From positions 1,726 through 65,725 of the forward strand of contig MEOG01000093.1 of assembly GCA_001769125.1 (NCBI GenBank): DNA of 64,000 nt, read 5' to 3'. Below the pieces are notes generated by a model that worked only from the letters and a program-made list of their open reading frames with translations, ran no database searches and was not told where the DNA came from. Positions 14,641 to 48,526 of the stretch are shown here, piece by piece; the stretch's first letter is position 1; the number at the start of each line of letters is the position of its first letter. A program made the position numbers and the translations under genes. This DNA comes from Bacteroidetes bacterium GWF2_35_48. GTDB lineage: Bacteria > Bacteroidota > Bacteroidia > Bacteroidales > GWF2-35-48.

Positions 14641-14677
14641 GGATTGCACTTCGGCAAGCTCAGTATGGCACAAATCC
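14641..14677. repeat. REP-like unit CACTTCGGCAAGCTCAGT between the arms GGATTG and CAAATCC
   Basis: The inner unit resembles CACTTCGACAAACTCAGTG at 30785; the outer arms look like a split GGATTGCAAATCC quasi-palindrome. Confidence 0.55.
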
Positions 14678-21015: not shown

Positions 21016-21044
21016 ACCGCTGACTGAGCGGAGTCGAAGTCAGC
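21015..21044. repeat. REP-like hairpin AACCGCTGACT-GAGCGGAGTCGA-AGTCAGC
   Basis: Near-identical copy at 26944-26977; related copy at 50001-50070. Confidence 0.85.
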
Positions 21045-21049
21045 TGAGT

Positions 21050-21132
21050 TGTTGCATGCAACACATTTACAATCCTATTATTCTATGCAGGTTGGCATGT
21101 GGATGCGTTGGCATACAACACATTTACATGCC
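21050..21132. repeat. Two degenerate copies of the GGCATGTGGATACGTTGCATGCAACGTATTTACATGCC hairpin element
   Basis: gttgcatgcaacacatttaca and ggcatgtggatgcgttggcatacaacacatttacatgcc; compare 44426-44459. Confidence 0.7.
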
Positions 21133-23952: not shown

Positions 23953-24098
23953 GTTGCAGGTTGCATGGTTGCATGGTTGTAAATTGTGATTGATGTTTGA
24001 AATTGTAGTGTTGAGCGAAGCGTCGCACTGAGTTTGTCGAAGTGTCGAAGTATGCTACGCACCTACAATGAAAACCAAACCAACCTGCAACCTGCAAC
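23953..24098. repeat. GTTGCA(G/TG) array, nested REP (24008-24055), inverted CTGCAAC array
   Basis: gttgcag gttgcatg gttgcatg ... caac ctgcaac ctgcaac; the central 48 bp is the reverse complement of 30774-30821 with 2 mismatches. Confidence 0.85.
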
Positions 24099-24124
24099 AA
24101 AAAAAAGTACAGTTACCCTCCCTT

Positions 24125-26794
24125 TTACAATCTATAATCCCTCCTTAATGAGATAGAAATTTTTAAGCCAATCATGTGAAAATTTAACTTATTAAAACCG
24201 ATGAAAACGCCTGCGCCAAATAAAAGTCCGATATTGGTCATTGCATAACCGGCTTCCCAGTAAGGCTGAATTTTTTCAGTATAAAGCAATGAGAAATATA
24301 CATTTTCGTGCCATATCCTGTTGCTTAGCCATGGTAAGTATTTTAATGCTAAATAAGACGATCTGTATTTAATAAAAACCTGCGCATAATAGCTATTGGT
24401 GCTGTATTTATAATATTCTAAAAAGTTATATGCTTTGTTAAAATCATCAATAATAAACAAGAGTAAAGGTGTTTTGAAGTGTTTGTAATCAATAAAATTA
24501 AGATTTTTGCGAGATAAAAAATTGCCATAAATTAATTGATAATTAAATCTGTTTCCCGCACCGGTACGTATTGTTTGCTCAATTCCTCCCTCTAAATTAA
24601 TAAATTTAATTTCACTTTTTCCTATGTCCGGAAATCCCATTTTGCATTGAATACTCATTGTGGGGAAACGCGATGATAGCATATATTTTCGATCGTCTCT
24701 TATCTGATAAAAATGTTCTGGAGTATAACTCAGCGCTAAAGATGCTAATGTTGTATTATGCGGCTGCAACTTATTGAGGATAGAAGAATCAACAGGAGGT
24801 GCATTTATCGTGTATTCTCTGTCATCATATTTAATAAAAGCAAAATCAGAAAAATTACGAAGAAAACTTCTTTGATAATATCCGGCATCTGCTCTGAATA
24901 CAAGACCGTTCACAATGTCAATCTGGTGATTAAGTTCAACAAACTGATGCTCATAAAGCTTTATATAATTCAACCTGTAAAACAAGCTTGCTAGTGTATT
25001 TCCGAAAACACCCACACCCGTTTTACCTCCAAAATCAATGCTTTCACTTCCAAAAACGCCTCCGACAAATCCTCTTTTCATAGGAGCGTAGGAAAATCGG
25101 TACTTCATATTTATCATTAATTTTTCACGATCAATTGCATAAGAAAGCAAAGGGTACAACCGAATATCTGTATTGCCGAAATTCTTCCGGAAAAAACAAC
25201 TGGCGCCCAAAACAAAGCCATCCACCGTATTGAATCTGAATTGCTCCATTGATAATAATCCGCTGAAAGCAATTGCTCTTTTTTTCTCTTTATTGTTCCA
25301 GTATTTCCCAAATATCAAAGTAGAAGCAAAAGAAGATTTTCTTTCTAATGAATCTTCTGACTCTTTTTCATTATTCTGATCTATAATCTTTACCTCTTCT
25401 GAAGTTAATGCAACAGGTCTTATTATATTCCACCGGGCTGTATCAATTATCCTGGCTGAAGAATCAACATTAACTTTATGCGAACGTTTTATTTCAAGAT
25501 TTTTAATCCGGCTTGTATCTCTGGCTTGTCTGGCATTTTTTTCCATAAGTTCAGAAAGCTTGTGCATTTCCCTGTTTGAAAGTTCCTCTTTCTGCATCAA
25601 CTCTTCGATTTGCTCTTTTCTTTTTTGTTCTTTTTTAAGTTGCGCAGGCGTTTTATCTTTCTCTGTTTTGGTTTTTGTAGCTTTAATCTCTTCTTTTTGC
25701 GCAGCATTAAAAGCATCTGTGAGATTAGAGGGTGGCGCAATTTTCGTATTTAAAATAATAAATTTATATTTCACAGAAGATACATAATTAAAGATACCTT
25801 CATTGCCTATAAATTTCCCATTGATGTCGAAGTTGTAACTAATCGGCAGCCATATATTTTTCTCAACTTCTCCGAAAGTTTGTTTAACCTGAATAGAACC
25901 AATCACTGTCTGCGCTGTAAGATCGGCACTATGAATGTTCCAGTAATTATCTGAAATATATATATACCCTTCCACTAATTGCTTGCTTTTTCGTTTGGGA
26001 ATAACACGGATTTTATTGACGATTCTATCTCCCTGCTTTGTATATCCGGCATAGCGGTATTTGTAATGCTTCATTGCATAAGGAGCAAGAGGCAGAATAA
26101 TATCTCCTATTTTAGGCTGATACAGGCTTGCATTCACAAACTCCATAACATCATTGTTCTCTGATTCTCCAGATGGGAAATTGGAACGTATCATTTTAAC
26201 ATGCTGCTCGTATTTATCAGGGGCAGTAAATTGAATGTTGTTTAAAGATTCCTGCACGTATAAACTGCCCTCTTTTACCATATTTTTTTCATTGCGGGTA
26301 GCCACTTTCACTGCCCAGGAAATTTTATTCACTTTAAGTGTTCCCTTCATATAGACTTCAGATGAAAATTCCTGAATCTGATTTCTATAATAGGAAGCCA
26401 TGCCTATAGCTTTTCTGATAATCGGATACGCCTTGTCCTCATTGCTTGAACTTACGGTAACAGCAGGGATTTGGTATGGTTTAAGAGAAAGAATAACATC
26501 AAAAGTATTCAGTCCCTTTTTTACTTGTATTTTTTTTTCAATTGTTCCATAACCGAGGCATTGATATGTTGCAGTGTATGTTCCTTCATTCAGCATCAGA
26601 TAATAAATACCGTCTTTATTGGACAATGTACCAAAACGGGTTTCCTTTATATATACTGTAACGAAAGGCAATGGGGCATCGGTTTCATCTTTGGTTGTTC
26701 CTGTTACAGTTTGAGAAAATCCTGATGCAGCAATTTTCATTAAAATAAAAAACAGAATACTTTTTAATATATAGATTTTACTCGGTTTTCCCAT
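24125..26794 (-). CDS. DUF5686 and carboxypeptidase-regulatory-like domain outer-membrane protein
   Basis: TVTGTTKDETDAPLPFVTVYI; YPIIRKAI; YISDNYWNI; FNTVDGF; beta-barrel-like C-terminus. Confidence 0.8.
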   Translation of the reverse strand: MGKPSKIYILKSILFFILMKIAASGFSQTVTGTTKDETDAPLPFVTVYIKETRFGTLSNKDGIYYLMLNEGTYTATYQCLGYGTIEKKIQVKKGLNTFDVILSLKPYQIPAVTVSSSNEDKAYPIIRKAIGMASYYRNQIQEFSSEVYMKGTLKVNKISWAVKVATRNEKNMVKEGSLYVQESLNNIQFTAPDKYEQHVKMIRSNFPSGESENNDVMEFVNASLYQPKIGDIILPLAPYAMKHYKYRYAGYTKQGDRIVNKIRVIPKRKSKQLVEGYIYISDNYWNIHSADLTAQTVIGSIQVKQTFGEVEKNIWLPISYNFDINGKFIGNEGIFNYVSSVKYKFIILNTKIAPPSNLTDAFNAAQKEEIKATKTKTEKDKTPAQLKKEQKRKEQIEELMQKEELSNREMHKLSELMEKNARQARDTSRIKNLEIKRSHKVNVDSSARIIDTARWNIIRPVALTSEEVKIIDQNNEKESEDSLERKSSFASTLIFGKYWNNKEKKRAIAFSGLLSMEQFRFNTVDGFVLGASCFFRKNFGNTDIRLYPLLSYAIDREKLMINMKYRFSYAPMKRGFVGGVFGSESIDFGGKTGVGVFGNTLASLFYRLNYIKLYEHQFVELNHQIDIVNGLVFRADAGYYQRSFLRNFSDFAFIKYDDREYTINAPPVDSSILNKLQPHNTTLASLALSYTPEHFYQIRDDRKYMLSSRFPTMSIQCKMGFPDIGKSEIKFINLEGGIEQTIRTGAGNRFNYQLIYGNFLSRKNLNFIDYKHFKTPLLLFIIDDFNKAYNFLEYYKYSTNSYYAQVFIKYRSSYLALKYLPWLSNRIWHENVYFSLLYTEKIQPYWEAGYAMTNIGLLFGAGVFIGFNKLNFHMIGLKISISLRRDYRL

Positions 26795-26910
26795 TCTTTA
26801 TTTTATGAAAAATATAATAAAAAAGCTATTTTGAAGTGTGCGCAAAAATAAATTTTTTTACCGGATGTTGAAGTTTTTATCTGAATAATTATTTAACATC
26901 AATAAATTAA

Positions 26911-27003
26911 GTTGCAGGTTTAAGGTTGCAGGTTGCAGATTTTAACCGCTGACTGAACGGAGTCGAAGTCAGCGGTTGAGGCCTGCAACCAACAACCTGC
27001 AAC
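26911..27003. repeat. (GTTGCAG) array, perfect 11-bp-arm REP (26944-26977), inverted (CTGCAAC) array
   Basis: Four heptamer units at 26911-26938; AACCGCTGACT/AGTCAGCGGTT; three heptamer units at 26983-27003. Confidence 0.9.
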
Positions 27004-27058
27004 AAATATTTTTTATCCCCATATTTTCTTTGTATCTTGCAATTAAATTAAATTTATT

Positions 27059-27355
27059 ATGGAACAAATCTTATCATCTTGCGGGCTAATTTGTAATGAA
27101 TGCCGTTTTTATCCGAATGAATGTGCCGGATGTTTTATGGTTAAAGGACAAACCTTTTGGGCAAAAGAAATGATGCCAAACAAAACCTGTCCATTATTTC
27201 ATTGTGCGGGGAATGAAAAAAAGTACGCGCATTGTGGAGAATGCAGTGAACTGCCTTGTGCTATTTTCAGAGAAATGAAAGACCCCGAATCTTCAGCAGA
27301 AGAACATGAAAAAATGCTGGGAGTAAGAGCCGAAAGGTTGAGGAATAAGAATTAA
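27059..27355 (+). CDS. DUF3795-family Cys-rich protein
   Basis: CGLICNEC...CAGC...CPLFHC...HCGECSELPC. Confidence 0.85.
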   Translation: MEQILSSCGLICNECRFYPNECAGCFMVKGQTFWAKEMMPNKTCPLFHCAGNEKKYAHCGECSELPCAIFREMKDPESSAEEHEKMLGVRAERLRNKN

Positions 27356-27648
27356 GAACTCATGTTACGCATATCTAAACGAATCACATAGGAACATAGT
27401 TCATCTATGCTTAAAGCGAAGCATCTTATTTTTAGAACGTTCATTTTTATTAAAGTTTAATATCATTGACGCTCCAACTACGCCATCTATGTGGTTAAAA
27501 TAATTTTGCGTAAAGGGAGTAAGTAACTGAACTTTCGCATAAATTAATTCGCTAAAAAATGAAATTAGTAACCATTTTTTAAAGAAAAATAAAAATATTT
27601 TTGCTTTTTCTGTTTTCATGAAAAATTAGGGCTGAAATCAAAATAATA

Positions 27649-27806
27649 ATATTCCGGTGCGCTGCACCTTTGTAAAAAACGCAGCTATCGCTGCTACAAA
27701 TATTATCGCAGCTCTGCTGCTACATTTGAAATGCAGCGGCAGAGCCGCAAAATATTTGTAAAACTAAAAAGAGATAGAATATCCAAGGTGCAGAGCACCG
27801 TAATAT
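27649..27806. mobile_element. About 158-bp long-hairpin REP/MITE-like element
   Basis: Outer IR ATATTCCGGTGCGCTGCACCTT / AAGGTGCAGAGCACCGTAATAT (2 mismatches); inner IR TACAAATATT..GCAGCTCTGCTGC / GCAGCGGCAGAGCCGC..AATATTTGTA. Confidence 0.7.
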
Positions 27807-28023
27807 ATACTGAAACTTGGCAGGTTTGCAAACAAGGCTGCTTAGTTTCAATTATACTGAGCGAATACAAATTTAATTATATTTTTGTAGCCCTTTTTAG
27901 CTATGCTGTCGAAGTATCTCTTGCATGGATTGCTGTTAACAATTGTTTCTATTTAGTGCTTGCAAGAAAACGTCAATTTCTGTGTTATGCTTGTCCTTAA
28001 AATCAGTCATGTACTTTAGTACA

Positions 28024-28044
28024 CCTGTCTGCCGACAAGGCAGG
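28024..28044. repeat. REP-like CCTGTCTGCCGACAAGGCAGG
   Basis: Same family as the hairpin at 42491/42856-42870 and the CCTGCC..GGCAGG units at 50017-50058. Confidence 0.7.
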
Positions 28045-28198
28045 CTCCTAATTTTAAACCCTTCGCAAGCCTTGAACTTGACATTTTCTTATCAAGCACT
28101 GACACTGTCAAGCAAAAAACATAAGTTTTCTTGCTGACACTAATTACAAAAATTATTAGTTCTTTTTCATACGAAAGCTCAGTAAATAAGATAAAAAT

Positions 28199-28885
28199 AT
28201 GAACAAATTTTTCTTAATCTATATTATTATTATTTATTTGCCTTTATGTGTTTTTTCACAAAATTCTGATACAACAAATTCAAAGAATAAAACTCTTGAA
28301 GAAATTTATCGTGAAGCCAGAGCATCAGAGGGTGAAATAATAGTACCTCCGCAAATAAATCCTGATTATTATAAAAAAATTTCTGCTTATTTCAGCGAGA
28401 ATAAAATTGATATACTCATACTTGAATTTAAAAAATACAGAGACCTTGCAAAGAAAAATTCCGGAAGCTTTGTAAGCGGTAATCTGATTCTTGGAGCACC
28501 ATCTGATCCATACTTCTCTCCCTCTGAAAATGCCAAAAGAGCCTCTTTCCTTGGAAGCTCCATTGAAAAATATATTGCTGAAATTAAAGATACCGCGACA
28601 TTCAGTAAAATCATTCTGAAGCTATTGGGGAATAAAATTATTTATTCCGAGATGCAGTATGTTTTTTATACATTTGAGATGATAGATGTTGTGGGTTCCG
28701 GTCGTTTTACTTATCCTGGAAAAGGAATAGAAATAAAAAAAAACCTTGTTTTGTTATTGTTAGAAAAATCAATGGAATTGTATCCGCAGAAAAATTTTAT
28801 ACTATTAAGATCTGATGCAGAAAAATATAAAGGAAAGCATTTTCTTGAATTTTTAAAAATACTCCATAAAACCATCAGAACCTAA
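28199..28885 (+). CDS. Hypothetical exported protein
   Basis: 228 aa with Sec-type signal peptide (MNKFFLIYIIIIYLPLCVFSQ); no family recognised; stop codon overlaps the mutL stop. Confidence 0.65.
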   Translation: MNKFFLIYIIIIYLPLCVFSQNSDTTNSKNKTLEEIYREARASEGEIIVPPQINPDYYKKISAYFSENKIDILILEFKKYRDLAKKNSGSFVSGNLILGAPSDPYFSPSENAKRASFLGSSIEKYIAEIKDTATFSKIILKLLGNKIIYSEMQYVFYTFEMIDVVGSGRFTYPGKGIEIKKNLVLLLLEKSMELYPQKNFILLRSDAEKYKGKHFLEFLKILHKTIRT

Positions 28886-30729
28886 AACCTGTTGTCTAAC
28901 TCTTCGTTAGATAGAATTGATATGATTGTTTTGCCGTCGTAGGTATAATTCGGTACGGAGCATAAAAAAAGCTGATTAAATAAAATTTTCATTTCTTCTA
29001 AAGCAAGGGACTTTGAATAATTTACTGATGAGGCCTTAGCCAGCGCCCATGCCGCTTTCTCCTGAACACTTGTCTTAATATCGCCCTGTGTTATTTTATA
29101 GTTTTCAAGAAAATTGCTTACAATATTCTCAATGTTTCCGGTATCAATGTTACCCGGTGTACCATTAATTATAAAAGATCTTCCACCAAATTCGCTTATT
29201 TCAAAACCCAGGGCATTTATATCAGGCATAATTTCTTTTAACAATTCAGCATCCGCTGCATTTAATTCAATGGTAACAGGGAAAAGCATTTTCTGAACTT
29301 CTTTTTTATTAGCAGAAGCCATGATTAAATAGCGTTCAAATAAAATTCTTTCATGCGCCCTTTTTTGATGAATCATCATTAGTCCATTTTTAACCGGAGT
29401 CAAAATGTATTTATTTTTAAACTGAAAAAACAAATTTTTTTCTACGCTTTCATTGCTTAGACCTTTTGCAAACAAATCTTCTTCTGATTTTGAAGAAGAA
29501 AAATCATCTCTCTCATTTTTTTCTATACCCTCGTAAAGTGCTTCCCAGTTCTTTTTGTTGTCATTATTATGCTTTTCAAAAAAATCATGAATATTCGAAT
29601 TGGAACTCAATCTTTTTACATTATCAAAAGGATTAAATTCGGGATTTATTTTTACTTCAGGGACTTTAATTTCTGTATCATCTGTAAGCATGGGTATGTC
29701 TACAAATTTTTCAATATCAAAATCAATAGAAGGAACAATATTAAATTTTCCCAAAGCTTCTTTAACGGAAGCCTGAATAATTTGCCAAATTAAATATTCA
29801 TCGCAAAATTTAATTTCTGTTTTAGTAGGATGAATATTTACGTCAATTTTAGAAGGGTCTATTGAAAAATAAAGGAAAAACGAAAGCATTGTATTAGGGG
29901 GAAGAATTTTTTCATACGCAATAGAAACAGCTTTGTAAAAATAAGGGTGTCTCATATAACGCTTATTCACAAAAAAGAACTGCTCCCCGGATGTTTTTCT
30001 TGCAAATTCGGGTTTTCCGATATAACCTTTTATCCCTATCATTGTTGTTTCTGTATCCACGGGAATAAGATTCTGCTGAATATTTTTTCCGAAAACATTG
30101 ATGATTTTTTGTTTCAAAGGAGAAATAGGGAGATTATAAATTTCTTCATCATTATGGAAAAGAGAAAAAGCAATATCCGTATTTGCTAAAGCTATTCTCT
30201 GTATTTCTTCAATTATGTGGCGGAACTCAGTCTGTGGAGATTTTAAAAATTTTCTTCTTGCCGGAACATTGAAAAATAAATTTTTTACAGCAAAGCTGGT
30301 TCCATCAGAGCATGAAACAGGCTGCTGGCTTTCAACTTCAGAAGCACTGATGAGAATACATGTTCCGATTTCGTCTTCTTTACGTTTTGATTTCATCTCA
30401 ACCTGCGCTATTGCAGCAACAGACGCAAGCGCTTCTCCTCTGAAACCCATTGTTCGTATGCAGAACAAATCATTCGCAGTTTTTATTTTTGAAGTAGCAT
30501 GGCGTTCAAAACACAAGCGTGCATCTGTTTCAGACATACCACAACCATTATCAATAATCTGAATCAATGTTCTGCCTGCATCTTTAATTATTATTTTTAT
30601 GAAAGTACTTCCAGCATCTACAGCATTCTCTACAAGTTCTTTCACAACAGATGCTGGTCGCTGAATTACTTCGCCGGCAGCAATCTGGTTCGCTACAGAA
30701 TCGGGAAGAAGTTTTATTATATCGGACAT
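28882..30729 (-). CDS. mutL: DNA mismatch repair endonuclease MutL
   Basis: NQIAAGEVIQRPASVVKELVENAVDAG, HATSKI, GFRGEALAS, DVNIHPTKTE, HQKRAHERILFE. Confidence 0.97.
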   Translation of the reverse strand: MSDIIKLLPDSVANQIAAGEVIQRPASVVKELVENAVDAGSTFIKIIIKDAGRTLIQIIDNGCGMSETDARLCFERHATSKIKTANDLFCIRTMGFRGEALASVAAIAQVEMKSKRKEDEIGTCILISASEVESQQPVSCSDGTSFAVKNLFFNVPARRKFLKSPQTEFRHIIEEIQRIALANTDIAFSLFHNDEEIYNLPISPLKQKIINVFGKNIQQNLIPVDTETTMIGIKGYIGKPEFARKTSGEQFFFVNKRYMRHPYFYKAVSIAYEKILPPNTMLSFFLYFSIDPSKIDVNIHPTKTEIKFCDEYLIWQIIQASVKEALGKFNIVPSIDFDIEKFVDIPMLTDDTEIKVPEVKINPEFNPFDNVKRLSSNSNIHDFFEKHNNDNKKNWEALYEGIEKNERDDFSSSKSEEDLFAKGLSNESVEKNLFFQFKNKYILTPVKNGLMMIHQKRAHERILFERYLIMASANKKEVQKMLFPVTIELNAADAELLKEIMPDINALGFEISEFGGRSFIINGTPGNIDTGNIENIVSNFLENYKITQGDIKTSVQEKAAWALAKASSVNYSKSLALEEMKILFNQLFLCSVPNYTYDGKTIISILSNEELDNRF

Positions 30730-30744
30730 ATTATTTCATATAAA

Positions 30745-30843
30745 TATTGGGGATATGGGGATGTGGATACGTTGCATGCTTCGACACTTCGACAAACTCA
30801 GTGCGACGCTTCGCTCAGCACAGGTGCAACGTATTTACATGCC
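30745..30843. repeat. Filled hairpin element: TGTGGATACGTTGCA[48-bp nested REP]TGCAACGTATTTACATGCC
   Basis: Insert at 30777-30824; the empty form is at 44426-44459. Confidence 0.85.
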
Positions 30844-33327: not shown

Positions 33328-33719
33328 GGGGCCGGTTTTGGTTTTGACAGCAAGTTGAAAGGATATGTAAGCATGCCGGGTAACGTGGTTCTTCCCGTAA
33401 AAAAGTACTGCAAACAATTAAAAGGCGAAAATTCATACGCGCTTGCAGCTTAATCACCAAGTGACTTAAGCACAGAACAGGACAAGGTCTTGTTCCAGGC
33501 TGTTCCGCTACAGATTTTTCTCAGCAATCTGAAGCATCGGAGCACTAGTTCTGTTGAGATAGCATTTGTGATGTTTCTAAGCAATTGCGAAATAACAGAA
33601 ACTAAGGTTCAGATAGGTCTCTTTTCTCCAGTCTGCACCCTACAATTTCAGAAAAGATAAGCATGTAGAAAGCATATTGGTTCCTTGTTTGGACCCGGGT
33701 TCGACTCCCGGCGGTTCCA
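33328..33719 (+). ncRNA. ssrA: tmRNA; tag peptide (A)GENSYALAA at 33424-33453
   Basis: 5' GGGGCCG..GGTTTTGAC; T-arm CCGGGTTCGACTCCCGG; acceptor 3' strand CGGTTCC-A; tag ORF ends YALAA-TAA; CCA is not fully encoded. Confidence 0.96.
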
Positions 33720-33736
33720 CACATTTAAGAAACACA

Positions 33737-38635: not shown

Positions 38636-38805
38636 TAGGAATACAGTAGGAATTCGATAGGAATTCGATAGGAATTCGATAGGAATTCGATAGGAATACA
38701 ATAGGAATACAATAGGAGTACAGTAGAAATACAATTGTACATCTACTGAACATCTATTGTTGTACTATTGAACACCTATCAAATCAACAATTGTATATCT
38801 ACTGA
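38636..38805. repeat. 11-bp tandem array that inverts polarity at 38734/38735
   Basis: Nine TAG-N5-CRR units (4 exact TAGGAATTCGA) at 38636-38734, then TTG/CTG-N5-CTA units (ttgtacatcta, ctgaacatcta, ttgttgtacta, ttgaacaccta). Confidence 0.88.
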
Positions 38806-42275: not shown

Positions 42276-42444
42276 AATATTTAGTATTAATTTAATTTTT
42301 GGCAATTTACAAAAAAAATCAAAACGGCTGACAATGAGCGATAACTTTTTCAAAAGACTATATTAAAAATCATAAAAAATTTGGTTTCAGGTAAAAATCA
42401 GAAGCTTGTTTTAACCTGTATTATTCATGACCTTTAATAAAAGT

Positions 42445-42486
42445 GTTGCAGGTTGCAGGTTGCAGGTTGCAGGTTGCAGGTTGCAG
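42445..42486 (+). repeat. (GTTGCAG) x6 perfect heptamer array; inverted CTGCAAC units at 42915-42935
   Basis: Direct reading of the sequence. Confidence 0.95.
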
Positions 42487-42501
42487 GTTACCTGTCGGCA
42501 G

Positions 42502-44251: not shown

Positions 44252-44256
44252 ATTGG

Positions 44257-44389
44257 TTTTGGGTTTTGGGTTTTAGGTTTTGGGTTTTAGGTTTTGGGTT
44301 TTAGGTTTTAGGTTTTAGGTTTTAGGTTTTAGGTTTTAGGTTTTAGGTTTTAGGTTTTAGGTTTTAGGTTTTAGGTTTTAGGTTTTAGG
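44257..44389 (+). repeat. Telomere-like heptamer array (TTTTRGG) x19
   Basis: 4 TTTTGGG and 15 TTTTAGG units, with 13 consecutive TTTTAGG at 44299-44389. Confidence 0.97.
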
Positions 44390-44395
44390 TTTTGA

Positions 44396-44481
44396 AATGT
44401 GGAATGTGGAATGTGGAATGTGGAATGTGGATACGTTGCATGCAACGTATTTACATGCCAAGTACATGCCAAGTACATACC
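44396..44481 (+). repeat. (AATGTGG) x5, perfect 20-bp palindrome ATACGTTGCATGCAACGTAT (44431-44450), then TACATGCCAAG x2
   Basis: Direct reading; this is the empty form of the element at 30762-30843. Confidence 0.92.
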
Positions 44482-48394: not shown

Positions 48395-48526
48395 GGATTA
48401 AGGATTAAGGATTAAGGATTAAGGATTAAGGATTAAGGAGTAAGGAGTAGGAGTAGGATTAAGGAGTAGGAGTAGCCTGCCAGACTGCGTAAAGCAGGCA
48501 GGGAGTAGGAGTAAGAGTAGGAGTAA
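48395..48526 (+). repeat. (GGATTAA) x6 then GGAGTA(A) units, with a 27-bp REP CCTGCCAGACTGCGTAAAGCAGGCAGG at 48476-48502
   Basis: Direct reading; the REP matches 46833-46859 at 25/27 positions. Confidence 0.92.

Follow-up and report, generated by a model that had tools for sequence, protein, structure and literature searches.

Filled and empty copies of one palindrome

The window, a 64,000-nt stretch of one contig of Bacteroidetes bacterium GWF2_35_48, contains two copies of the same palindromic repeat, one of which is interrupted by a 48-nt insert (Table 1). When the flanks of the insert were joined (30762-30776 and 30825-30843), they were identical at 34/34 positions to the uninterrupted copy at 44426-44459, and the 48 nt (30777-30824) lay exactly between both palindrome halves, that is, at the centre. 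The insert had no coding capacity and was itself composite, reading on the minus strand CCTGTGCTGAGCGAAG, CGTCGCACTGAGTTTGTCGAAGTG and TCGAAGCA, in that order. These results upheld the initial annotation, which had described a composite element with a filled and an empty site. The copy at 44426-44459 has the identical flanks expected of an empty partner, but it is not unique: the exact 34-mer was present twice in the genome, and 11 copies were found at three or fewer mismatches. Upon folding, the empty site gave a 14-bp hairpin of -11.3 kcal/mol, compared to -19 to -21 kcal/mol for filled hairpins. An orthologous empty site was not found in relatives, the closest genomes being approximately 79% identical in the neighbouring gene and non-syntenic, and the unique left flank of the site had 0 matches in a metagenome scan.

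Table 1. Coordinates of the palindromes and modules in the window.
Feature	Position	Strand	Remarks
Separate 24-nt I-type module, TGCCATACTGAGCTTGCCGAAGTG	14647-14670	-	In loop of degenerate CTCGGATT..AATCCGAG palindrome
Longer-stem U-type hairpin, CCGCTGAC-TGAGCGGAGTCGAA-GTCAGC	21017-21044	+	Repeats D9, D12; adjoins P-like half-site 21051-21080
Older U24/I24 composite, lineage B	24008-24052	+	GTGTTGAGCGAAG 24008-24020, I24 24021-24044, TCGAAGTA 24045-24052
Diverged right P arm, TGCTACGCACCTACAAT	24053-24069		Foot CTACAAT pairs with ATTGTAG at 24002-24008
Left arm of filled P copy, TGTGGATACGTTGCA	30762-30776		Complementary to 30825-30834; ATACGTTGCA is the arm of one P subfamily
U24 3' segment, TCGAAGCA on minus strand	30777-30784	-	
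Module I24, CGTCGCACTGAGTTTGTCGAAGTG on minus strand	30785-30808	-	Inside U24 loop, between GAGCGAAG and TCGAA
U24 5' segment, CCTGTGCTGAGCGAAG on minus strand	30809-30824	-	
Right arm and tail of filled P copy, TGCAACGTATTTACATGCC	30825-30843		
Empty copy, P subfamily as at 30762-30843	44426-44459		34/34 identical to joined flanks

The outer palindrome family

The interrupted palindrome belongs to a REP-like family, P, whose two halves read NNNCGNNNCA and TGNNNCGNNN. At least 170 copies were counted in the genome, many with tGTAg...cTACa feet, and 108 of the copies in this wider family were empty, which confirmed the proposal that the flanking element exists in empty form elsewhere. The spacing of complementary 10-nt arms was quantised. 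In 108 cases the arms lay 0 nt apart, and in 18 they were separated by 1 nt; 39 cases clustered at 23-24 nt (approximately 33 true modules, the others tandem P copies) and 8 at 48-49 nt, 5 of which were composites. Chance is ruled out as the source of this pattern. Empty copies outnumbered filled ones (108 versus approximately 45) and were found in every arm subfamily. Filled copies at C19, C53 and C96 had identical imperfect arms and similar outer flanks; some filled P copies have therefore multiplied as whole units, and independent insertions are fewer than filled copies.

Unlike the 48-nt insert, P has the features of a REP, namely a high-copy short intergenic palindrome with a conserved GTAG-type foot. 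A narrow P pattern matched 60 copies in this genome, 0 in both same-genus genomes and 16 in another genome, G010, from which U24, the outer module of the insert, was absent. P and U24 are independent entities, since P occurs without U24 in G010 and U24 occurs without P in at least 15 phyla. The 186-copy word TTCCACTATGGGACGAT was rejected as a P arm; it is the CRISPR repeat on contig C135.

Modules and junctions

The outer module, U24, is 24 nt long (CYTGTGC-TGAGCGRAGTCGAA-GYA) and holds in its loop a second module of 24 nt, I24 (CGTCGCACTGAGTTTGTCGAAGTG). The modules share one plan: an overhang of 4-5 nt at the 5' end, a clamp of 3 bp, and a loop of 13-14 nt that is conserved (TGAG...GYCGAA). 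The unit length of 24 nt was determined by trimming: matches to empty sites peaked where left and right trim together came to 10 nt, with peaks of 29, 28, 21 and 19 matches compared to no more than 5 in the control. Symmetric trimming missed the empty sites because the units are asymmetric, whereas asymmetric trimming succeeded. The genome contained approximately 160 simple U loops, 28 copies of U24, 18 of I24 and 14 of K, a 21-nt unit; a further unit, J, is 25 nt long. Copies of I24, J, K and U24-like units were nested in U loops, each type at its own fixed position. For I24 this position was a single one, shared by U hairpins of at least seven different stems in the genome; it was the same in cross-phylum composites, in which it was fixed beforehand by the search pattern. 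In the stems, G.T mismatches exceeded A.C mismatches on the sense strand (49 versus 25, p = 0.007).

Most U24 copies in the genome (24/28) lay at a P apex, in at least five arm subfamilies that each also had empty copies. The junctions were consistent: all 24 of 24 apex copies were inserted at CA/TG (slashes mark junctions), the filled site reading CCA/C...GTA/TGG, with target bases neither duplicated nor lost. The 3-bp TGC duplication that had been put forward as one possible insertion rule proved to be the GCA allele of U24. This allele was also found in non-GCA contexts, and the GTA allele was found in a GCA-type palindrome, which argues against a duplication. The units also differ from MITEs, which combine terminal inverted repeats with a target-site duplication, in being asymmetric and in making no duplication.

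Insertion at other targets

Insertion at hairpin apices, initially suggested from the site in the window, is a general rule here that covers P apices, module loops, another palindrome family and heptamer arrays. In the other palindrome family (CTCGGATT..AATCCGAG), 12 copies were empty, their loop being 3 nt long, and 4 were filled. Heptamer arrays split by modules had an exactly continuous phase, both in this genome and in cyanobacteria; a period scan at a strict threshold returned no arrays, and these were found instead by direct reading. Several P subfamilies, heptamer arrays, the other palindrome family and module loops all received inserts, precisely and repeatedly at one position. The target words varied, and only an A/T junction was frequent. 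In other genomes U24 lay mostly outside perfect palindromes, 93 of 133 copies having no complementary flank, so the preference for apices may be local, or may be borne by homology between donor and target.

Distribution across phyla

A sequence search recovered exact U24 at more than 117 loci in at least 15 phyla, and an I module in a U loop at 69 loci, including many Nostoc genomes, Pseudanabaena, Chloroflexota and Bacteroidota. The label of composite REP given in the initial annotation was therefore abandoned: the modules are 24-nt units, resembling the small dispersed repeats (SDRs) compared below, that are found in at least 15 phyla, and the nesting of I in U is a cross-phylum and not a local feature. 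With U24 invariant from phylum to phylum, the lack of differences among its copies in separate P subfamilies is useless as a clock. Among Bacteroidota, the hairpins were found in 60 of 301 genomes, at 0-83 copies each, with a patchy distribution among relatives. Phages were rejected as carriers, as just one IMG/VR contig had U24.

This distribution bears on whether the hairpins are host elements under selection (terminators, RNA-stability elements or protein-binding sites) that are alike through function. In agreement with such a role, 141 of 159 U loops were intergenic, their density was 0.23-0.25 per kb after gene ends compared to 0.064 per kb between divergent genes, and hairpins were more stable when filled. 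We nevertheless consider it extremely unlikely that function accounts for the likeness. Orientation to transcription followed no rule (43 same sense, 61 antisense), no Rfam family matched, the occurrence in relatives was patchy, and neither letter-for-letter identity across phyla nor nesting would be expected of convergent terminators.

Specific RNA identities were also rejected. A tRNA origin of the reverse strand (TTCGACTYCGCTCAGC, with likeness to a T-loop and 3' end) was matched by 0 of 43 genome tRNAs. For known RNA families and ribozymes, Rfam at gathering thresholds returned tmRNA only, and when the site was scanned permissively no meaningful match emerged; the hammerhead core CUGANGA was absent by eye.

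Probable movement of the composite

The composite had been reported to recur in reverse at 24008-24055 with two mismatches in 48 nt. The recurrence and the two mismatches were confirmed, but over 45 nt (24008-24052); the TGC at 24053-24055 falls within TGCTACGCACCTACA (24053-24067), a diverged form of the right arm of the outer palindrome. This copy no longer has the CCT that opens U24, nor the inner left P arm, and the junction TGTAG/TGYYGAGCG is common to it and to a copy at C105:202457. A repeat of 60 nt in the same region (I1) was 90% complementary to 30762-30821. Only five copies of the 48-mer were found in the genome at up to 10 mismatches. Between the two intact composites, the arms differed at 8/20 positions and the inserts at 1/48 (p = 1.3e-4, or p = 2.3e-3 when paired changes were counted once). 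The P-borne composites share a private I24 variant (CGTCG..TTT..T) that was absent from all other contexts; three copies were identical and the fourth, on C105, was off by one base.

The most likely reading of these sequences, although it is not proven, is that the U24/I24 pair entered the P copy at 30.7 kb as one 48-nt unit. The original suggestion that the composite moved as a unit thus gained the shared private variant and the contrast between arms and inserts, but separate insertion of I24 is equally parsimonious. In that case no unit would have moved, and I24 would have been inserted separately into at least two U24-bearing P copies because it strictly prefers a single site within the U loop. 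We regard this as somewhat unlikely. It is consistent with the constant loop position in at least seven stems, with I24 in the U loops of many phyla and with its frequency, approximately 9% of all U loops holding I24 and a similar share among U24-bearing P copies. Furthermore, the 3' alleles of U24 in the composites match their own P subfamily (GTA in the CTCCA-type, GCA in the TTGCA-type), so that separate insertion would need one substitution, the same as unit movement. Against separate insertion, the private variant was confined to U24-bearing P hosts. With such hosts accounting for roughly one U loop in five, two or more further random hits there would be unlikely (probability about 0.04). 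In addition, the U24 loop base at 30.7 kb was GAGCGAAG, compared to the resident GAGCGGAG in TTGCA-type P copies with U24.

The same two results, the arm and insert divergence and the private variant, also argue against a reading in which nothing was inserted. P with a 48-nt centre would then be an old variant that spread whole, with arms altered by compensatory mutation or conversion and with empty copies produced by hairpin-mediated loss of the centre. The centres of palindromes are prone to deletion, some filled P copies (C19, C53 and C96) did spread whole, and the constrained U24 sequence carries no age information, all of which is compatible with this reading. It is very improbable all the same, given that P and U24 each occur without the other, that empty copies outnumber filled ones in every arm subfamily, and that heptamer arrays and other palindromes are interrupted with exact continuity by the same modules.

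Candidate enzymes

The initial annotation had pointed to a RAYT or TnpA enzyme. The Y1 proteins of the genome comprise one of IS200 type and five RAYT-like ones, in addition to fragments, but each Y1 gene had different hairpin arrays of its own beside it, and P or U/I loops flanked none of these genes; the proposed link was not supported. A composite of REP type that is mobilised in single-stranded form by a Y1 HUH enzyme (RAYT or IS200/IS605 TnpA), which would cut and rejoin hairpins without duplication, would explain the lack of a target duplication, the hairpin form of the element and the structure-forming targets. The GTAG/CTAC feet of P resemble those of REPs, the genome does have Y1 proteins, and the G.T bias of the stems would fit recognition of one folded strand. 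Such an enzyme is improbable, since in other genomes the 186 loci surrounding copies of U24 or of the composite included just one that encodes a Y1 protein, each module has one hairpin and not two distinct ends, and a fixed 4-5-nt target word is absent. The two different subterminal hairpins and insertion 3' of a fixed 4-5-nt word that characterise the miniature elements derived from IS200/IS605 (PATEs) were likewise not found in the modules.

A different gene was associated with the hairpins. The single-copy GIY-YIG gene of the genome (C39:112372), whose Slx1-like (UPF0213) product is approximately 95 aa, lies amid a cluster of about 12 U/I-type hairpins. Relatives of this product with 68-81% identity were encoded at 80 loci, and at 73 of these U/I-type loops lay no more than 500 nt away. 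The density of the loop TGAG(N3-5)GYCGAA was 4.03 per kb within 500 nt of the minigene, compared to 0.04-0.17 per kb at 0.5-5 kb, which corresponds to a 25-100-fold enrichment. These hairpins have the same loops on longer, variable stems. No exact U24 or I24 module was found in 647 kb around the 80 loci, so the shared loop alone ties the modules to the nuclease. Among Bacteroidota, 18 of 26 U-rich genomes had a nuclease homolog, compared to 7 of 26 U-free ones (p = 0.005). U-free was defined by a narrow pattern; 7 such genomes had a homolog, and 8 U-bearing genomes lacked a close one.

The association was limited to one subfamily. Loops were found at 0 of 16 genes of other GIY-YIG subfamilies and at only 3 of 7 looser members of the C39 type. 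A link to GIY-YIG minigenes in general was rejected, as 2 of 20 in four U-rich genomes had nearby loops. There was also no overall enrichment of GIY-YIG or Y1 genes near dispersed modules (three GIY-YIG and one Y1 in 1.36 Mb); two of these three GIY-YIG genes, near U24 or composite copies, were close homologs of the C39 gene. In contrast to GIY-YIG homing elements, in which the mobile DNA encodes the nuclease, the nuclease gene here lies elsewhere in the genome.

As a tentative and rather doubtful proposal, the U, I and K modules may be non-autonomous partners of this single-copy, minimal Slx1-like nuclease, which would nick extruded hairpins at their single-stranded tips, where units of 21-48 nt would be copied in. 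Alternatively, the nuclease gene might be a parasite that targets the hairpins.

Proposed mechanism

Taken as a whole, the data are probably best explained by nested, SDR-like modules that were inserted precisely at the tip of P, which was nicked by a nuclease, and copied in by repair. The modules would be non-autonomous elements whose targets can extrude a single-stranded tip, as hairpin apices, loops or slipped repeats can. This tip would be nicked, most plausibly by the GIY-YIG nuclease in trans, and the module would then be copied in from a filled donor through short-homology templated repair. Because a hydrolytic nuclease is unable to ligate, the mechanism would be copy-and-paste.

If the modules are indeed partners of the nuclease, the two would form a second partnership of the REP-RAYT kind, with a different class of enzyme and spread over many bacterial phyla. 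The units copied in would include nested composites that travel as one piece. Such a partnership would explain loops that hold constant on stems that vary among copies, and would supply the missing enzyme for cyanobacterial SDRs. The modules enlarge and reshape intergenic hairpins, can pass for REPs, terminators or small RNAs, and may serve as strain markers.

Comparison with known systems

Insertion sequences that target REPs, namely IS1397, ISKpn1 and ISRm22 (Tobes and Pareja 2006, PMC1525189), are also mobile DNA that lands specifically within palindromic repeat units. Those elements are at least 1 kb in length and coding, with inverted ends and target duplications, whereas the units here are 24-48 nt, non-coding and inserted without duplication.

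REPs and REPINs, which are associated with RAYT (Y1 HUH) transposases (Bertels and Rainey 2011, PMC3116915), are likewise high-copy intergenic palindromes placed after genes, and they surround a single-copy nuclease gene that presumably serves them, here the GIY-YIG minigene. P itself is REP-like in its GTAG/CTAC feet. In contrast, the candidate enzyme here is a hydrolytic GIY-YIG nuclease and not a Y1 HUH protein, the 24-nt unit has a conserved loop and free stems where REPs have the reverse, the units nest in each other's loops, and the RAYT genes of the genome are accompanied by other repeats.

The nuclease gene beside the U-type hairpins matches by sequence the prokaryotic stand-alone Slx1-family GIY-YIG proteins (UPF0213; PDB 1zg2 and 1ywl; Dunin-Horkawicz et al. 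2006, PMC1564403). The eukaryotic Slx1 nuclease is structure-selective, with branched DNA and stem-loops as its substrates (PMC6902002). In the searched literature, the bacterial proteins were assigned neither a function nor a partner repeat, and mobility was not reported for them.

In behaviour, the modules appear to match the SDRs of Nostocaceae, to which they are likened by description and not by sequence. As summarised in citing papers, SDR4-6 are mobile units of 21-27 nt (Elhai et al. 2008, Genome Res 18:1484, cited in PMC4390886, PMC13756078 and PMC3116915), and SDR5 inserts between nt 3 and 4 of HIP1 (GCGATCGC) (PMC4390886). In the searched literature on SDRs, no enzyme was named and the function was called unknown (PMC13756078, PMC4390886). 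The U and I sequences were not found in the searched literature, which comprised sources other than the 2008 SDR description itself. SDRs, according to these accounts, are small (21-27 nt), non-coding, hairpin-forming units that nest in one another and insert precisely and without duplication into a palindrome; the modules likewise are small (21-25 nt), non-coding and dispersed, with mutual nesting and precise, duplication-free insertion. SDRs reportedly insert into heptamer repeats too. The present analysis adds a clean pair of filled and empty sites, units that are identical letter for letter in at least 15 phyla, duplication-free insertion at structure-forming DNA, and a loop that is characteristic of the DNA around the genes of one minimal GIY-YIG nuclease family (73/80 loci). 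The system here differs from SDRs in its Bacteroidales host, in its target, which is the apex of a 20-30-bp REP-like palindrome and not HIP1, and in modules that are identical across at least 15 phyla and have their loop in common with the hairpins around a GIY-YIG minigene.

Filled and empty palindromes in the window and genome

The initial annotation had paired a filled with an empty site of one palindrome, and the sequences were found in the window as claimed. When 30762-30776 (TGTGGATACGTTGCA) was joined to 30825-30843 (TGCAACGTATTTACATGCC), the product was identical to 44426-44459 at 34/34 positions, the palindrome halves being separated by exactly 48 nt (30777-30824). This insert consists of two 24-nt hairpin modules, I24 being nested in the loop of U24. 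Hairpins were predicted to be approximately twice as stable when filled (-19 to -21 kcal/mol, compared to -11.3 kcal/mol for the empty copy).

The genome, a Bacteroidales metagenome-assembled genome of 5.98 Mb (142 contigs, 34.8% G+C), was searched for 10-nt arms matching NNNCGNNNCA, each with its reverse complement after it. The arms of this REP-like family, P, were separated by 0 nt in 108 cases and by 1 nt in 18, with further clusters at 23-24 nt (39 cases, approximately 33 of them true modules and the remainder tandem P copies) and 48-49 nt (8 cases, including 5 composites). Arm subfamilies with compensating changes were observed (CGTTGCA, CGTTCCA, CGCTCCA, CGCCCCA and CGTCCCA), and the feet were frequently tGTAg...cTACa. 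The proposed empty site therefore exists but is not unique; given the 108 zero-spacing copies and several subfamilies, it represents the form in which this REP-like family usually occurs. Two copies of the exact 34-mer were found in the genome, and 11 copies at ≤3 mismatches. Some filled P copies spread as whole units, with identical imperfect arms on contigs C19, C53 and C96.

Among relatives P was patchy, with 60 narrow-pattern copies in this genome, 16 in one genome of another family and 0 in two genomes of the same genus. Since one genome carried P without U24, P and U24 are separate entities that met in this genome.

The additional composite at 24008 was present, but the match extended over 45 nt (24008-24052, 2 mismatches) and not the 48 nt originally described. 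The 15 nt after 24052 represented the right arm, now diverged, of a P-like palindrome; on the left side the inner arm was missing, as were the unit's first bases. Its left junction (TGTAG|TGYYGAGCG) was shared with a copy at C105:202457 and, because of this common junction, the two were assigned to one older lineage. Across 24002-24067 and C105:202440-202520 the inner left arm was lost at one junction and the right arms differed at 5/15 positions, reflecting either a common ancestor with later arm change or recurrent deletion. The 24008 copy, the 30.7-kb site and the 44426 site were all located between tandem genes on the - strand. A tmRNA gene was identified at 33328-33722 (+) of the window (Rfam RF00023, 127 bits).

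Coordinates of modules, arrays and RAYT-like genes (C-prefixed positions refer to contigs of the same genome, all others to the window)
Feature	Location	Strand	Detail
48-nt insert, parts	30777-30824	-	CCTGTGCTGAGCGAAG / CGTCGCACTGAGTTTGTCGAAGTG / TCGAAGCA
Intact composite (30.7-kb site)	C93:32492		arms ATACGTTGCA
Intact composite	C103:20558		arms AATCGCTCCA
24-nt I-type unit	14647-14670		in degenerate CTCGGATT-NNN-AATCCGAG family member
K copies	C17:19174, C24:27960, C39:112307, C60:1420, C92:2941, C97:40362		8 more
Partial tandem copies	C19:19863-20010, C47:10347-10470, C41:81715, C39:113544
Tandem arrays	44255-44425, 23953-23985, 42444-42489, 48395-48449, 38636-38745
RAYT-like Y1 genes	C64:90274-90762, C105:89945-90406, C140:38707-39204, C82:73130-73594, C88:50280-50765

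Module plan and insertion junctions

The fillers of P were always positioned between CA and TG. Approximately 27 were copies of U24 (CYTGTGC-TGAGCGRAGTCGAA-GYA), and a 23-nt relative had unchanged arms and the loop TGAGCYTGYCGAA. Three kinds of composite were observed: I24 in U24 (48 nt), J in U24 (49 nt, three copies) and one 44-nt case, J being a 25-nt unit at a loop position other than that of I24. The units had a common plan, comprising a 4-5-nt 5' overhang, a 3-bp clamp, a 13-14-nt loop (TGAG...GYCGAA) and the clamp partner. Genome-wide, at ≤2 mismatches, 24 of the 28 copies of U24 were at a P apex, one was in another U-type loop and three were elsewhere.

A 3-bp TGC duplication had been named as one of two possible insertion rules, and was not supported. 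The apparent 3-nt repeat at 30.7 kb is due to the GCA allele carried by the U24 copy there; this allele was also carried by copies in CCA-type palindromes and, in other phyla, by copies in unrelated surroundings, and a GTA allele was found in a GCA-type palindrome. At P junctions of the CCA|TGG type, which read CCA|C...GTA|TGG, there was no target duplication and only a 1-nt ambiguity.

Junctions were analysed genome-wide by cutting out the loop plus i nt to its left and j nt to its right and seeking the joined flanks elsewhere. Matches peaked at i + j = 10, with 29 at (8,2), 28 at (7,3), 21 at (9,1) and 19 at (6,4), compared to ≤5 in the mismatched-flank control; this peak corresponds to the 24-nt unit. 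The same analysis revealed 25-28-nt U-type units within (GTTGCAG)n / (CTGCAAC)n arrays, with exactly continuous phase, and further units within CCCGAGCT..AGCTCGGG palindromes. Another palindrome family, CTCGGATT-NNN-AATCCGAG, was represented by 12 empty and 4 filled copies.

Units nested in U loops had their own fixed place according to type: I24 after TGAGCGRA(G), U24-like units after TGAGCG(A), and the 21-nt hairpin unit K (CCTGCCTGTCCGGTAGGCAGG) always as TGAGCG|K|GAGTCGAA, in 14 identical copies within at least 6 different host stems.

Tandem partial copies, of either the left half (arm + TGAGCG..) or the right half (..AGCGGAGTCGAAGCC), were frequent in U-type hairpins, and their breakpoints in the loop coincided with the insertion places of other modules. 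The window also contained long intergenic tandem arrays of 7-nt units (11-nt units in one case), namely GGTTTTA, GTGGAAT, GTTGCAG, GGATTAA and TAGGAATTCGA; hairpins were often flanked by these arrays, sometimes by inverted arrays on the two sides. In Dokdonia, Mariniflexile and Olleya (loci L138, L180 and L189) the U24 copies lay in a tandem repeat of 20 nt and had an additional TAG at either side; among the contexts seen, only this one might be interpreted as a 3-nt duplication.

Probable movement of the 48-nt composite

The two intact composites differed at 8/20 arm positions and at 1/48 insert positions (hypergeometric p = 1.3e-4; p = 2.3e-3 with paired changes counted once). The identity of U24 provides no clock, since U24 is identical across phyla. 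I24 has free positions, and its variant CGTCG..TTT..T was present in 3/4 composite copies inside P, the fourth (C105) being one base off; this variant was seen in no context other than composites inside P. The common variant points to recent common descent, which would imply movement between P subfamilies. Had I24 instead entered two P(U24) copies already in place, each time on its own, the substitution cost would be the same, one, as for movement of the pair; the main objection to this alternative is that the I24 variant was confined to P(U24) hosts, which make up approximately 1/5 of all U loops. Movement of the 48-nt pair as a unit was judged roughly twice as probable as separate insertion.

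Distribution and genomic context of the modules

The loop CTGAGCGRAGTCGAAG was present in 60/301 sampled Bacteroidota genomes, at 0-83 copies each; the reversed pattern, used as a control, gave 0-1 copies. Among the matches listed, the exact 24-nt U24 was found at >117 loci, including loci in the Cyanobacteria, Chloroflexota, Nitrospinota, Margulisiibacteriota, Saccharibacteria, Peribacteria and Levyibacteriota, as well as Fibrobacter, Geobacter, Chromatiaceae, Methylococcaceae and Leptospirales; one 1.8-kb contig was binned as Methanosarcinales, possibly by mis-binning. The I-in-U loop was found at 69 loci, including Nostoc, Calothrix, Tolypothrix, Chloroflexota, Melioribacteraceae and Flavobacteriaceae, with approximately 20 copies in one Pseudanabaena genome and stems that were always short, variable and complementary. 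As these matches show, the modules are not local inventions.

In other genomes U24 was mostly outside perfect palindromes, 93/133 copies having no complementary flank. It recurred there within loops belonging to other U-type hairpins and, with exact continuity, in heptamer arrays (for example ccaaaat ccaaaa|U24|t ccaaaat; cagttat cagtta|U24|t cagttat).

In the present genome 141/159 U loops were intergenic on a crude ORF map, by which intergenic DNA is approximately 14% of the genome. Their density was 0.23-0.25 per kb after gene ends versus 0.064 per kb between divergent genes, and orientation followed no rule with respect to the direction of transcription (43 same sense, 61 antisense). The three loop-adjacent base pairs were Watson-Crick in 97-98% of copies. 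In the outer stem, sense strand, G.T exceeded A.C (49 vs 25, p = 0.007), a weak indication that it is one particular strand that folds.

Candidate enzymes

A search for a RAYT/TnpA gene with matching flanking repeats had been proposed, and the RAYT idea did not pass it. No gene of the Y1 class (HUH enzymes including RAYT and IS200-type TnpA) was flanked by P or U in this genome, which encodes one IS200-type and five RAYT-like proteins. Each gene had its own, different flanking hairpin arrays (for example CAGTCCGCTTTAGCGGACTG, CCATCGGTGCAACCGATGG and CACTCCGTAGGAGTG). Since each of the five RAYT-like genes lies in a separate array family, several distinct REP-RAYT-like systems are present in the genome in addition to P and the loop modules. 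A CRISPR array at C135:122-12159 (186 repeats, …ATTCCACTATGGGACGATTAAAAG…, spaced 64-68 bp) had a repeat that was superficially similar to a P arm but unrelated to it.

A general link to GIY-YIG minigenes was rejected, as loops were nearby in only 2/20 across four U-rich genomes. The three loop-positive cases were all members of a single subfamily that carries GWSRxKKEALI as its C-terminal motif and is represented in this genome by C39:112372, inside a 3.7-kb cluster of approximately 12 U-type hairpins. By sequence its product is assigned to the minimal GIY-YIG domains of UPF0213/Slx1-like type (PDB 1zg2, 1ywl), a group with no function reported for its bacterial members (PMC1564403).

In 80 loci encoding relatives 68-81% identical to this protein, U- or I-type loops were ≤500 nt from the gene in 73/80; loop density was 4.03 per kb at 0-500 nt versus 0.04-0.17 per kb at 0.5-5 kb. 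The loops flanked the gene on either side and pointed in either direction; their stems varied, and partial copies in tandem were common. Exact U24 and I24 were absent from the 647 kb around these loci. Homologs were present in 18/26 U-rich versus 7/26 U-free genomes (p = 0.005), an imperfect profile. Two minigenes of a different GIY-YIG subfamily (C64:64100-64500 and C124:40100-40480) were beside or inside tRNA genes; one of these minigenes had the intact tRNA on one side and, on the other, a partial 5' tRNA copy with a CCTGCC..GGCAGG hairpin.

Either the hairpins may be served by the nuclease, or the nuclease gene may use them as targets. Because GIY-YIG enzymes cleave DNA by hydrolysis and are unable to rejoin the ends, the mechanism of module insertion that we infer would require host repair with a filled donor as template; this would agree with the way each genome tends towards a dominant host repeat of its own.

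Comparison with small dispersed repeats

In behaviour the modules match the small dispersed repeats (SDRs) of Nostocaceae, which are modules of 21-27 nt. SDR5 is described in PMC4390886 as inserting precisely into the HIP1 palindrome, between its nt 3 and 4, and its function is still termed unknown in PMC13756078. The elements reported here are real and provide a clean instance of a class that is already known yet little understood, and offer a testable enzyme candidate, the GIY-YIG nuclease. New relative to the SDR work are the Bacteroidota setting, the REP-like target, the identity of units across phyla, the fixed module-specific loop positions and the link to a nuclease family.
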